64,000 nt of DNA from Escherichia coli (GTDB taxonomy: Bacteria > Pseudomonadota > Gammaproteobacteria > Enterobacterales > Enterobacteriaceae): assembly GCA_002099625.1 (NCBI GenBank), contig GCA_002099625.1_4857.1; one strand, given 5' to 3'. Every line of letters begins with the position of its first letter. Positions within the stretch are counted from its first letter, which is position 1. The position numbers and the translations under genes are program-made. The notes below the pieces were generated by a model. It saw nothing but the letters and a program-made list of their open reading frames with translations. It did no database searches and was not told the DNA's origin. Below are positions 10,698 through 13,387 of this stretch, one piece after another.

Positions 10698-11189
10698 ATG
10701 AAACGTCTATTTATCGTATTCGCGATTATAAACCTGTTGGCCGGTTGTGTTCAGTCGCCAAGCAACATAGGACAATTTAGCGCCACACCAGTAAAGAATC
10801 ACGACTTGGTGATTTATACATGCACAGGGACGCAGGAGAAGTTTATAGACTACCGTCCGGTTCTGGACAATCTACAGATGATGCCGCGGTCAGTAACAGT
10901 AATGGATGTGGGTGCAAACTGGGTAGCAACGTGGGACGGTGGCAAACTTGAGTCACCGATGATGTTTAAAGATGTGGTTGGCAAAATCGACGGGAATGTT
11001 AACACCACCACGGGCGAGCGTTATTACCGTATTAATAAAACAGCAAACGATAGCCCAACTTATTCTTTTTCGGATGTGAACCCACATACCGGGGAAGGTA
11101 AAGGGATGACATTCTTTCGCTGCAGCGCCGGCTTTATCGACGAAGTTCCTACGCCGATTATGATTGTTCCGTTAGAAGAAAATAAATAA
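10698..11189 (+). CDS. putative lipoprotein
   Basis: 163 aa; N-terminus MKRLFIVFAIINLLAGC = signal peptide with lipobox (LLAGC); lies in the lysis region. Confidence 0.65.
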   Translation: MKRLFIVFAIINLLAGCVQSPSNIGQFSATPVKNHDLVIYTCTGTQEKFIDYRPVLDNLQMMPRSVTVMDVGANWVATWDGGKLESPMMFKDVVGKIDGNVNTTTGERYYRINKTANDSPTYSFSDVNPHTGEGKGMTFFRCSAGFIDEVPTPIMIVPLEENK

Positions 11190-11195
11190 TGCTTA

Positions 11196-11235
11196 CCCAC
11201 TCCCGTAAGGGGAGTGGGTATGGGCTTTATTTACC
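11196..11235 (+). terminator. rho-independent terminator after lipoprotein gene
   Basis: CCCACTCCC-GTAA-GGGGAGTGGG hairpin followed by TATGGGCTTTATTT. Confidence 0.5.
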
Positions 11236-11314
11236 CTCTAAAACGCTCTGTAACGCTCTCTAAACGCATTAAACGTCTTGGATGATAAATGATATTACTT
11301 TTGATTAAAGTGGC

Positions 11315-11830
11315 TTAGATTTTAACTAGCTTGCTCCAATCGATGGGTTGTTGTTTAACCACTTTAACGGTACCACGTGTCGGTGACCAGAAAGTGATAT
11401 CAGGCTGGTTGCGTACGTCAACATGCAGCCAGGTAATATCGCACTCGATAAAGTGAATAAACGGAAACTCGTTAGGGTTCGCGGCAATATAGTCGTGTAC
11501 TTTCTGCAACGGAGTATCAAGCATTGTTGCATCAAACGCATTGCCGAATTTATGCATACTGCCTGATTCCGCGTACAGTTTGTTTGCACGAGTTTGCCAA
11601 TCGCCACCCTTTGGTTTCTCTTGATTAATAAAGAACTGCAGGGTACGCAGACTACGCTGTTGCTGGGAACTGGTTAAAATCACCATCCGCCCAAAACGAT
11701 TACGAATCTGTTGGAGCGAGATTAGCAGTAACGGATTAAGGAAACGAATAGCACCTTCACCGTATTTCGCGATGTACTCCTGCGGCATCAACTCTTTTAA
11801 CGCGAAGTTGGCAGGATTCGGATGAAACAT
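11315..11830 (-). CDS. peptidase M15-like peptidoglycan hydrolase (putative L-alanyl-D-glutamate or D-Ala-D-Ala peptidase)
   Basis: 171 aa; GGAG RBS; motif SMHKFGNAFDA matches the SxHxxGxAxD zinc-binding signature of the VanY/M15 family; downstream WLHVDV supplies a candidate third ligand. Confidence 0.7.
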   Translation of the reverse strand: MFHPNPANFALKELMPQEYIAKYGEGAIRFLNPLLLISLQQIRNRFGRMVILTSSQQQRSLRTLQFFINQEKPKGGDWQTRANKLYAESGSMHKFGNAFDATMLDTPLQKVHDYIAANPNEFPFIHFIECDITWLHVDVRNQPDITFWSPTRGTVKVVKQQPIDWSKLVKI

Positions 11831-11839
11831 TTTCTCTCC

Positions 11840-12481
11840 TTAAGGGGTAGTCAGGAACGCACGTTTGATATTCAAATACTGCACGTTTACCGGTTGCCCA
11901 TTAGTAATGTCAACACGTTCGTGTTCAGGAATCGCTAACGTACGCGACGTTCTAAAGAACAGGTAGTTGCGATTATAGGACAACGTCTTTTCTACCGGCC
12001 GGCTATAAACCACCTTAGAGTTATCGTCTACATAGGACGGCCAACCAAACTCGTGAACGGCATGGTAGAAGGACTTACGAATAAAGGTATCAACGCCTAA
12101 TGCCTCCATGATACGTAAGAACATCAGGTCAGCGAATGTTTTGTCACATGCACGAGATAGATTACCTTCGACAGTGTCAGGGTAAAAGCCTACCGATGAA
12201 CGTTTCTGGTAAAACAAATCATGCACACAAGCGGCAGCGGCCCAAGGCCCATCCGGATGCAGGATAGGACGTAACGCTTCTGGAATGCTTGCCAGGTCCG
12301 TCACAAATCCTCTCGGTACCGTTACCCATAACGGGGTATCCGGATGCACACCTGCTAATGCTACCATCGCATCCATTCCGGTCTGTTCACGATAGAGGCT
12401 GCGCAACGTAAACTCGAAATGGAAATCATCCGTGAGGATAAACCACGGCTTCTCTAACAACTTATACTCAAGTGCTTCCAT
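11840..12481 (-). CDS. hypothetical protein (lysis-region associated)
   Basis: 213-aa ORF, ATG start; no catalytic motif recognised. Confidence 0.5.
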   Translation of the reverse strand: MEALEYKLLEKPWFILTDDFHFEFTLRSLYREQTGMDAMVALAGVHPDTPLWVTVPRGFVTDLASIPEALRPILHPDGPWAAAACVHDLFYQKRSSVGFYPDTVEGNLSRACDKTFADLMFLRIMEALGVDTFIRKSFYHAVHEFGWPSYVDDNSKVVYSRPVEKTLSYNRNYLFFRTSRTLAIPEHERVDITNGQPVNVQYLNIKRAFLTTP

Positions 12482-12488
12482 ACTGACC

Positions 12489-12581
12489 TCACGTCATATA
12501 ACGCACGAGCATCGTGAGGACCATTAATCCCAGTAAAATGGGCATTAAGCCTTTCGGCCAGTCGTCGTTGTCGTATTGCAT
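12489..12581 (-). CDS. candidate small membrane protein (30 aa)
   Basis: hand-translated ORF MQYDNDDWPKGLMPILLGLMVLTMLVRYMT with GGAGGG RBS; one predicted TM helix; between endolysin and downstream genes; too short for the ORF track. Confidence 0.3.
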   Translation of the reverse strand: MQYDNDDWPKGLMPILLGLMVLTMLVRYMT

Positions 12582-12769
12582 GGCTTTACCCTCCGACAGA
12601 AGATCGCGCGTAATAGTTTGAAGAACCCAGAATCGTAATACGTTTCCGGAACGGTTTGTACTTCGGGGAACTTAGGCGGAGTTGGACGGTGGGTCATTAC
12701 GTTTTCTCCTTGCGGCAAAAACAAGGGCGCGCCAGATAGCTTTCATTAAGGCAGCAAACCAATTCTGTT

Positions 12770-13387
12770 TCATTTGCACACCCCCAACTTAGCCACGTAG
12801 TCTGGCATTTCATGATAGACGCGGCCATACCAGCCGTAAGTAAACTCTTCGTTATCCTCACGCCCTTCACTGATTTCCGTGTAATACGCAACCTGATGAC
12901 AGGTTAAAGCGAACATCAGTCGATTCAGGCCCTCTTCCCCACGGGCTTTGATGAAGCCTTCTAACGCTGTTAACGTACGTGGCCCGATACCACCATCGGC
13001 ATCGATATCATCGTATAGTTTACCCTGACGGTTTAATACGTTCAGAATACGTTGCAGGGACTTGATACAGTTACCGCGTCCTGCGTTAATGCCGAAATCA
13101 AACATTCGGTCAGCTAGCAGGACATTCATTTTCATAATCTGGTCTAAACGCATTCGCTGCCACCAGAGCTTGTTGTAAATGTCTAACGCGATTTCTAAGC
13201 TCAGGTCACGCATATCCCCTTTATAGCCATATTCGCGCGCAGTGAGTTCGGTGACACCGCGGTTCGTTGCTTTGCCCAAATCTTTCGGGTTATTAACGTA
13301 ACCGGCTTCGATGTTTACTTTGGCACGAATAATGCCCTCTTTACTCCAACGATCGACCACGATAACCTCCTGAGTTGATAGGGTCAT
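12770..13387 (-). CDS. endolysin, GH108-type lysozyme domain plus peptidoglycan-binding domain
   Basis: ORF 12770-13423 trimmed to second ATG (13387) because the first ATG lies inside the upstream terminator hairpin; EAGYVNNPKDLGKATNRGVT matches the GH108 N-terminal signature (EGGYVNDPxDxGG.T..GIT); C-terminal DADGGIGPRTLTAL matches PG_binding_3-type motif. Confidence 0.8.
   Translation of the reverse strand: MTLSTQEVIVVDRWSKEGIIRAKVNIEAGYVNNPKDLGKATNRGVTELTAREYGYKGDMRDLSLEIALDIYNKLWWQRMRLDQIMKMNVLLADRMFDFGINAGRGNCIKSLQRILNVLNRQGKLYDDIDADGGIGPRTLTALEGFIKARGEEGLNRLMFALTCHQVAYYTEISEGREDNEEFTYGWYGRVYHEMPDYVAKLGVCK

Follow-up and report, generated by a model that had tools for sequence, protein, structure and literature searches.

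Mycobacteriophages carry LysA and LysB, one cassette that pairs a peptidoglycan hydrolase with a lipid-ester hydrolase attacking the outer lipid layer. In the nucleus-forming jumbo phage phiKZ, the lysis genes are contiguous and proven, consisting of the gp141 i-spanin, the gp141.1 o-spanin (120 codons), the gp142 holin, the gp143 regulator and the gp144 SLT endolysin (PMC12894885). Outside phages, the typhoid-toxin islet of Salmonella encodes, as its fifth gene, the DUF1353 protein TtaP, a bona fide phospholipase A2 (PLA2) that is related to group XIV secreted PLA2s, has demonstrated sn-2 activity and uses H70, D71 and D85 in catalysis; it remains cell-associated and acts alongside a muramidase (PMC11525133). 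DUF1353 was shown to be a PLA2 in 2024, in the only functional study of the family that we found in the searchable literature, and has no known biological role. Here we analyze a 64,000-nucleotide (nt) stretch of contig GCA_002099625.1_4857.1, hereafter the window, whose positions are used throughout. At 11194-13419 on its minus strand, a DUF1353 gene lies in one operon between genes for a TtsA-like muramidase and an M15-fold peptidase.

Gene content and boundaries of the operon

By DNA comparison, the window belongs to Seoulvirus and is another isolate of this genus of SPN3US-like giant Salmonella phages. Positions 10000-14000 are 95.9-98.3% identical over their full length to Seoulvirus jumbo phages (SPN3US, the SPFM phages, the SPLA phages and phage 1252), and the 2.2-kb core reaches 99.2% identity to several SPFM phages. 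SPN3US gp156-gp160 (JN641803 / NC_027402) and the other Seoulvirus genomes equal the window in gene content and order at 96-99% DNA identity, with 99.4% protein identity for gp158 and no substantive difference. With orthologue names following SPN3US gp numbering and assigned by position, the operon reads as follows (aa, amino acids; ORF, open reading frame; TMD, transmembrane domain).

13398-13419, minus: upstream terminator-like hairpin, GC-rich, 9-bp stem with 6 GC pairs and a T-run tail (CTTTCTTTTT), abutting the muramidase start
12770-13387, minus: gp156 orthologue, GH108 N-acetylmuramidase with PG_binding_3, 205 aa
12672-12773, minus: mini-ORF a, 33 aa, cationic amphipathic (MKQNWFAALMKAIWRALVFAARRKRNDPPSNSA), net charge +6
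12545-12697, minus: mini-ORF b, 50 aa, Pro-rich N-terminus, conserved cationic core GFFKLLRAIFxRRV, AAGGAG ahead
12489-12581, minus: mini-ORF c, 30 aa, acidic N-terminus, single C-terminal transmembrane helix (TMD score 2.02), GGAGGG ahead
11840-12481, minus: gp157 orthologue, DUF1353 / TtaP-class phospholipase A2 homologue, 213 aa
11315-11830, minus: gp158 orthologue, LAS/M15-fold zinc peptidase-like, 171 aa
11194-11220, minus: downstream terminator-like hairpin, 11-bp stem, after the peptidase gene

The 213-aa protein, listed as unknown in an earlier reading made from the sequence alone (the sequence-only reading), is the most informative gene of the locus and links both hydrolases across related phages. 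It matches DUF1353 (PF07087) at 63 bits against a cut-off of 22.5, as do 29 of 29 homologues. We recovered the typhoid-toxin islet from Salmonella enterica subsp. diarizonae, with its GH108 gene at 4001-4516 of contig L151 and the DUF1353 gene convergent to it, 205 nt off; the 125-aa TtaP orthologue encoded there is 37% identical to the phage protein (BLASTP E 3e-17). In both BLASTP and hidden Markov model alignments, phage residues H87/D88/D118 fall on TtaP H70/D71/D85, and all three are invariant in the 29 DUF1353 homologues. PDB sequence and profile searches returned nothing meaningful, and fold comparison revealed a core helical fold common with group XIV secreted PLA2. The phage protein is longer than TtaP at both ends, by about 50 residues at the N-terminus and about 60 at the C-terminus, and has no signal peptide. 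Taken together, homology and aligned catalytic residues identify it as a TtaP-class PLA2 homologue, which would be expected to act enzymatically in the phage. PHROG and RefSeq label it a "tail assembly chaperone", a name that we reject as apparently positional, given that homology and catalytic residues indicate a PLA2. In public Seoulvirus annotations, the three main genes appear as "endolysin", "tail assembly chaperone" and "endolysin", with SPLA-phage records naming both hydrolases endolysin; databases do not recognize gp157 as a phospholipase, and most omit mini-ORFs a and b.

The 205-aa protein clears the Pfam cut-offs for both of its proposed domains, Glyco_hydro_108 (65 bits versus 21.2, E 9e-18) and, at the C-terminus, PG_binding_3 (68.4 bits versus 24.6, E 6e-19), which bears out the earlier call of a GH108-type muramidase with a peptidoglycan-binding domain at 12770-13387. 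Its nearest solved structures are Sen1395 (6V3Z, E 1.7e-41) and 6V40 (E 4.6e-39; deposited as a PG_binding_3 domain-containing protein), both typhoid-toxin-secretion-type (TtsA-class) muramidases. The IEAGY motif of the phage protein aligns to EGGY of these two structures, and 23 homologues of 36-78% identity all retain E27, the predicted catalytic Glu of the EAGY motif, as well as D36 and T41. The protein has neither a signal peptide nor a signal-arrest-release domain, and its gene is annotated endolysin across the jumbo clade; we regard it as a probable endolysin. A longer ORF (12770-13423) would span the upstream hairpin; the start at 13387, used by both the sequence-only reading and the GenBank annotators, is the likely one.

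For the 171-aa protein, the family assignment proposed earlier (M15 zinc peptidase) held for fold and metal site, and its own Peptidase_M15_3 score of 16.8 bits lies under the Pfam cut-off of 23.2. It carries S91-M-H93-K-F-G96-N-A98-F-D100 (SxHxxGxAxD) and WLH136VD; H93, D100 and H136, the H-x6-D...H zinc-ligand triad, are invariant in 16 homologues, as is D138. Among these close homologues, 11 of 16 match M15_3 (best E 6.8e-8) and 7 match M15_4. PDB sequence and profile searches gave nothing meaningful, fold comparison alone being informative: the predicted structure has the LAS (Hedgehog/DD-peptidase) fold. Because the Pfam score is under the cut-off, the call rests on the predicted fold, the metal-ligand motif and the matching homologues, which support a LAS/M15-fold zinc peptidase-like protein.

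Between muramidase and phospholipase, three mini-ORFs follow one another closely. Mini-ORF a begins with an ATG that overlaps the muramidase stop codon as ATGA, belongs to phrog_25143 (4e-12) and has homologues in phiEaH2, STsAS, L028, L034-L037 and L043. Mini-ORF c overlaps mini-ORF b by 37 nt; SPLA1a and phage 1252 have it annotated as a coding sequence, and L029-L032 contain analogous "DDDPPP + TM" mini-ORFs. Against relatives at about 70% DNA identity (STsAS and phiEaH2), 43-78% of codon differences in the mini-ORFs are synonymous, with 9 synonymous and 7 non-synonymous changes for a and 12 and 11 for c (both versus STsAS), and 6-7 and 2 for the core of b (versus STsAS and phiEaH2). We judge this share to be well above random expectation, indicating that the mini-ORFs are real genes under purifying selection. 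Their position is conserved as well: of 18 IMG/VR jumbo-phage relatives, 15 carry GH108 immediately ahead of DUF1353, separated from it by one or more mini-ORFs of the cationic "NWF...RKR" or the acidic-Pro-TM type.

Two further features of the mini-ORFs were observed. The conserved C-terminal RRKR of mini-ORF a is encoded by bases AGGAGAAAACGT, which are also the Shine-Dalgarno region of mini-ORF b (12672-12710), so that conservation of one could be a by-product of the other. In two metagenomic relatives (L029, 2855-3013; L032, 2852-3004), one 50-52-aa ORF joins the N-terminal motif of the b type (PPxFPEVQ..EEY) to the acidic-Pro-TM tail of the c type, suggesting that a frameshift split one ORF into the overlapping b and c of Seoulvirus, or the converse.

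All genes of the operon are co-oriented on the minus strand (13387 to 11315), separated by 7-10 nt gaps or overlapping. Hairpins stand at both boundary positions in STsAS, phiEaH2 and ChrisDB as well. The upstream one is alike in structure and different in sequence; the downstream one, ACCCACTCC...GGAGTGGGT, is conserved after the last operon gene in STsAS and phiEaH2, and ChrisDB has a different strong hairpin there. In phiEaH2 and ChrisDB, the peptidase is absent and the last operon gene is DUF1353. Because the hairpins keep both positions in relatives, muramidase, mini-ORFs, phospholipase and, optionally, peptidase form a discrete unit. From this layout, 11194-13419 is predicted to be one transcription unit, presumably expressed late. 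A sigma-70 promoter scan yielded more sites in shuffled sequence than in the real one and was set aside; phiKZ-like phages use their own RNA polymerases.

The upstream hairpin ends 10 nt ahead of the muramidase ATG, and its 3' arm holds the only Shine-Dalgarno-like sequence there (GAAGAGG). With the sole ribosome-binding sequence inside the hairpin, one structure may throttle both read-through and initiation of endolysin translation. The arrangement is alike in STsAS; phiEaH2 and ChrisDB have a 45-50 nt spacer and a free Shine-Dalgarno sequence.

We put at about an even chance the reading that this is an envelope-degradation operon whose products act at lysis on glycan, peptide and lipid. Muramidase, peptidase and phospholipase would accumulate in the cytoplasm late in infection. 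Lacking export signals, all three would build up there until the inner membrane is opened, either by a holin whose gene lies elsewhere or possibly by the mini-proteins, and only then reach their substrates. The soluble GH108 muramidase would then act as the endolysin and cut glycan strands, the LAS/M15-fold peptidase would cut peptide stems or cross-links and widen the attack on the sacculus, and the phospholipase would cut membrane phospholipid at sn-2 into lysolipid and fatty acid, helping to dismantle inner and outer membranes. By analogy, the pairing of a muramidase with a PLA2 in the typhoid-toxin islet lends some support to this scenario, as do the DUF1353 genes found within or next to lysis genes in unrelated viral contigs and the absence of gp156 and gp158 from wild-type SPN3US virions.

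Two peptidoglycan hydrolases of unrelated type, a GH108 muramidase and a LAS/M15-fold metallopeptidase, do lie in one block, as the sequence-only reading saw. Their co-occurrence, which it singled out, is routine for a phage region: the genes are in GenBank, both are annotated as endolysins, and the literature has already noted multiple endolysin-like genes in Salmonella phages, a Seoulvirus among them. We found neither a PLA2 in a phage lysis-type operon nor a parallel with the ttsA-ttaP pair described in the searchable literature, nor any study there of an SPN3US endolysin, holin or spanin. The PLA2 in a lysis-type operon is presented here as a lead, not a demonstration.

DUF1353 neighborhoods and virion proteomics

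In the jumbo clade, the module varies around DUF1353, its constant member and hub. Seoulvirus has GH108, DUF1353 and M15 together; in phiEaH2 and ChrisDB the module consists of GH108, a mini-ORF and DUF1353 and has no peptidase; and in Phobos, CR5, Derbicus and metagenomic contig L008 DUF1353 overlaps or adjoins the peptidase gene and GH108 is missing. Among four distant GH108 homologues sampled, a DUF1353 gene touches two. Our census of non-jumbo IMG/VR loci covered 59 (62 were fetched, and the DUF1353 gene was not callable in 3). Phage_holin_4_1 is the commonest immediate neighbor (11), followed by DUF4376 (8), and at the second position the commonest families are Amidase_3 (6), phage_tail_N (4), DUF4376 (4) and Peptidase_M15_4 (3). 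Individual loci read, for example, Amidase_3, 111-aa protein, DUF1353, holin (L044); M15_4, 97-aa protein, DUF1353, holin (L047); or DUF1353 then M15_3 (L097), and in Fusobacterium phage FNU1 an amidase lies two genes from DUF1353.

Several observations weigh against a role in lysis. With a limited seed set, a recognizable lysis gene lies within 1.5 kb in only about 3 of 23 non-redundant, unbiased viral DUF1353 clusters, and neighbors of tail-fibre type (DUF4376, phage_tail_N) occur about as often as lysis genes do. DUF1353 is nearby at 1 of 80 bacterial GH108 loci, which is the typhoid-toxin islet itself; this count rules out a general GH108-DUF1353 module in prophages. The detection of gp157 in wild-type virions, given below, fits a role in entry or ejection better than one in lysis, and an SLT transglycosylase, small TMD proteins and a spanin-like pair encoded elsewhere could be the real lysis system. 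Since DUF1353 typically stands at the junction of tail-fibre and lysis modules, its position alone does not decide its role.

The virion genes that bear on this question, together with the other neighbors of the operon, are the following.

10047-10574, minus: gp160 orthologue
10698-11189, plus: gp159 orthologue, 163-aa lipoprotein
13466-15643, minus: gp155 orthologue
15658-16977, minus: gp154 orthologue

Published mass spectrometry of purified SPN3US lists gp154, gp155, gp157 and gp160 as virion (head) proteins. With 175 spectra, gp160 is among the most abundant; gp157, with 9 spectra and 4 unique peptides in the wild-type head, is among the least abundant and was undetected in three mutants. 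The wild-type list contains neither gp156, gp158 nor gp159, and gp156 was never detected. For gp158, 2-3 spectra were obtained in two complete-particle preparations and none in tailless particles or particles lacking the virion RNA polymerase; it was later seen in "very low amounts" in two mutants, which the authors regard as non-specific. The earlier suggestion that one of the two hydrolases is virion-associated is thus not borne out by orthologue proteomics, and it is the phospholipase that may be virion-borne.

On that account the phospholipase, and perhaps the peptidase, would be a low-copy virion protein for entry, packaged with the fibre-like DUF7941 proteins, leaving GH108 as the only endolysin; local hydrolysis of host membrane lipid, and of peptidoglycan, would admit the large genome and the ejection proteins. 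The gp157 peptides in wild-type heads and the gp158 spectra confined to complete rather than tailless particles are what it would lead one to expect, and the operon stands at the end of a 20-kb virion-gene array. DUF1353 also follows tail-fibre or DUF4376 genes in many unrelated phages. Parvovirus capsids carry a PLA2 for entry. However, gp157 is very scarce and missing from the particles of three mutants, the gp158 signal was judged non-specific, and the phospholipase gene appears to share its operon with a muramidase that is not in the virion; elsewhere DUF1353 sits between endolysin and holin genes, and TtaP is cell-associated and works beside a muramidase. We consider a function in entry rather unlikely, yet it is the main rival to the lysis reading.

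A long array of DUF7941 paralogues (13466-33419, minus) corresponds to "paralog family B" of SPN3US, which has about 20 members, all placed in the head by mass spectrometry. The 725-aa member of the array at 13466-15643 also contains a domain resembling the T4 Gp38 adhesin (E 4.8e-18). Such a receptor-binding module is unexpected in a head protein.

Other associations of DUF1353 were noted in passing. Two radical-SAM genes, a 204-aa ORF and a DUF4376 gene (window 6518-9965, plus) accompany DUF1353, in varying orientation, in all jumbo relatives examined (ChrisDB, Phobos, phiEaH2, L008), and DUF4376 is also a neighbor of DUF1353 in Francisella phage KIRK; the association may be a functional link or merely reflect a common position by tail-fibre genes. 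In a set of IMG/VR loci (L054-L064 and L070, at about 3372-4650), more than 1.2 kb directly downstream of DUF1353 has no ORF of at least 50 aa under code 11, which could reflect stop-codon reassignment or a non-coding element.

Candidate lysis functions inside and outside the operon

The sequence-only reading took 10698-13387 for a lysis cassette. Every ORF that it listed was found where it had placed it, and the co-orientation of two unrelated hydrolase types with small membrane ORFs stands; these ORFs proved to be three conserved mini-ORFs, one with a transmembrane helix and two cationic amphipathic. The rest of a cassette was not recovered. No holin family matched the mini-ORFs or any other part of the operon in Pfam, PHROGs or NCBIfam, where the sole NCBIfam match was a sub-threshold "holin-associated N-acetylmuramidase", and 11194-13419 contains neither an i-spanin/o-spanin pair nor a u-spanin.

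The lipoprotein at 10698-11189 has the classic lipobox claimed for it: its N-terminus is MKRLFIVFAIINLLAG/C, with lipobox LLAG/C, V at +2 and a mature domain of 147 aa, and the Cys is kept in homologues at 48-60% identity (phiEaH2, STsAS, ChrisDB). It belongs to phrog_9559 (unknown function, 1e-82) and matches nothing in Pfam or NCBIfam. As a member of the cassette it had to be given up, for it lies on the strand opposite to the hydrolase genes, is flanked by its own intergenic regions and travels with the gp160-like gene. In phiEaH2, STsAS and ChrisDB it is always beside that head gene and not necessarily beside the hydrolases. Upstream of it, on its strand, there is only a 123-nt intergenic region, followed by the gp160-like gene on the other strand, and relatives are similar. 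We therefore ruled out an o-spanin by strand, synteny with the gp160-like gene, size and the lack of an i-spanin gene upstream; from its genomic context, the lipoprotein reads as an independent neighboring gene outside the operon.

A self-sufficient cassette, in which the small ORFs are holin and antiholin, the lipoprotein is spanin-like and the hydrolases are redundant endolysins, draws on the transmembrane helix of mini-ORF c, the membrane-active-looking cationic helices of a and b, the genuine, conserved lipobox with a residue other than Asp at +2, and the precedent of phiKZ, whose clustered cassette includes a 120-codon o-spanin. The position, synteny and mature domain of the lipoprotein speak against it, as do the unmatched holin families and a better spanin-like pair and a 67-aa two-TMD protein encoded elsewhere in the genome; we hold it to be highly improbable. 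The operon is more than a wall-hydrolase pair and less than a complete lysis cassette.

Those other candidates came from a genome-wide check of the near-identical phage SPLA1a, whose annotation we read whole and which we scanned for TMDs and lipoproteins. The SPLA1a annotation names neither a holin nor a spanin, and the genome encodes only two convincing lipoproteins, the gp159 homologue and a 159-aa protein with lipobox LLTGC (191466-191945). Directly ahead of the latter is the gene for a 169-aa protein that has an N-terminal TMD, a charged, coiled-coil-looking stretch and a Pro-rich segment, so that 190947-191945 is a candidate i-spanin/o-spanin-like arrangement and the only such pair in the genome. 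A cluster of small TMD proteins at 182.9-183.6 kb includes the 67-aa two-TMD holin-like protein, and at 186.0 kb lies a 240-aa SLT transglycosylase with a signal-peptide-like N-terminus. In all, the region 182880-191945 encodes four small TMD proteins (63, 67, 43 and 35 aa) and a 76-aa two-TMD protein and is a candidate dispersed lysis region. The spanin-like pair, TMD cluster and SLT gene lie 35-45 kb from the operon, outside the window, and none is annotated as a lysis gene.

These genes, at about 183-192 kb, raise the possibility that the operon is accessory or redundant and that the main lysis is the work of the SLT protein, small TMD proteins and spanin-like pair. GH108, PLA2 and M15 would then be host-range or condition-specific helpers, for example in stationary phase or on LD-cross-linked walls, or remnants kept by linkage. 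Besides the presence of alternative lysis-type genes, this is favored by the varying composition of the module, in which M15 or GH108 can be missing in relatives, and by the TtsA class of the nearest solved muramidase relatives; Geiger et al. reportedly found TtsA to require LD-cross-linked peptidoglycan. Purifying selection on all operon parts, including the mini-ORFs, and the annotation of GH108 as endolysin throughout the clade argue the other way, and the cleavable-looking signal peptide of the SLT protein would be unusual for a holin-dependent endolysin. We consider an accessory operon improbable.

One side observation concerns the reference genomes. In several SPFM records of GenBank (e.g., LR535904, LR535906-08, LR535911 and LR535917), the match to the window is broken into 36-40 short pieces, and the predicted proteins reach about 100% identity over only 10-15% of the query. 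Such fragmentation points to many indel errors in those assemblies, and hence ORF calls there are unreliable.

The operon among known systems

Should the phospholipase act at lysis, as the envelope-degradation reading has it, lipid hydrolysis would join the known routes by which phages dismantle the envelope, in Gram-negative and Gram-positive hosts, a widespread "tail assembly chaperone" annotation would be corrected, and there would be a concrete hypothesis for TtaP in typhoid-toxin release. The amber-mutant genetic system of SPN3US makes a test of the lysis role practical. Going further, we tentatively raise, as a possibility that we would not favor at present, that DUF1353 PLA2s are an unrecognized class of phage lysis effectors, membrane-lipid "lysins" that would breach the inner membrane, the outer membrane or both together with an endolysin and small membrane peptides, and that ttsA-ttaP is a domesticated copy of such a module. 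The role of TtaP would then be that of an outer-membrane-perturbing partner of TtsA.

Among described phage enzymes, the M15/LAS endolysins (the L-alanoyl-D-glutamate peptidases of T5 and RB49, Ply500, LysB4 and LysECD7) are only 10-18% identical in sequence to the 171-aa protein, which, unlike them, has a long helical N-terminal half and fails the Pfam cut-off. In the related phage phiKZ, lysis genes are clustered around the endolysin, as here. However, the phiKZ endolysin is an SLT transglycosylase and that of the window a GH108 protein, the proven phiKZ holin and spanin pair adjoin the endolysin, which neither does in the window phage, and the phiKZ cassette has no phospholipase and no M15 peptidase. 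LysA/LysB resembles the operon in bringing a peptidoglycan hydrolase and a lipid-ester hydrolase together. Its lipid enzyme, LysB, is no His/Asp PLA2: it is a cutinase-like esterase of the alpha/beta-hydrolase type and acts on the mycolyl-arabinogalactan linkage of mycobacterial hosts.

The typhoid-toxin islet also places a GH108 gene (ttsA) next to a DUF1353 gene (ttaP). Neither protein has a signal peptide, and the phage muramidase is 42% identical to the S. diarizonae ttsA orthologue. In contrast to the phage operon, ttsA and ttaP converge and, controlled by PhoPQ, function in toxin release without lysis, and TtaP, at 125 aa, is shorter than the 213-aa phage protein. The phage operon, unlike the islet, encodes three mini-proteins and an M15-fold peptidase besides the muramidase and the phospholipase A2 homologue.

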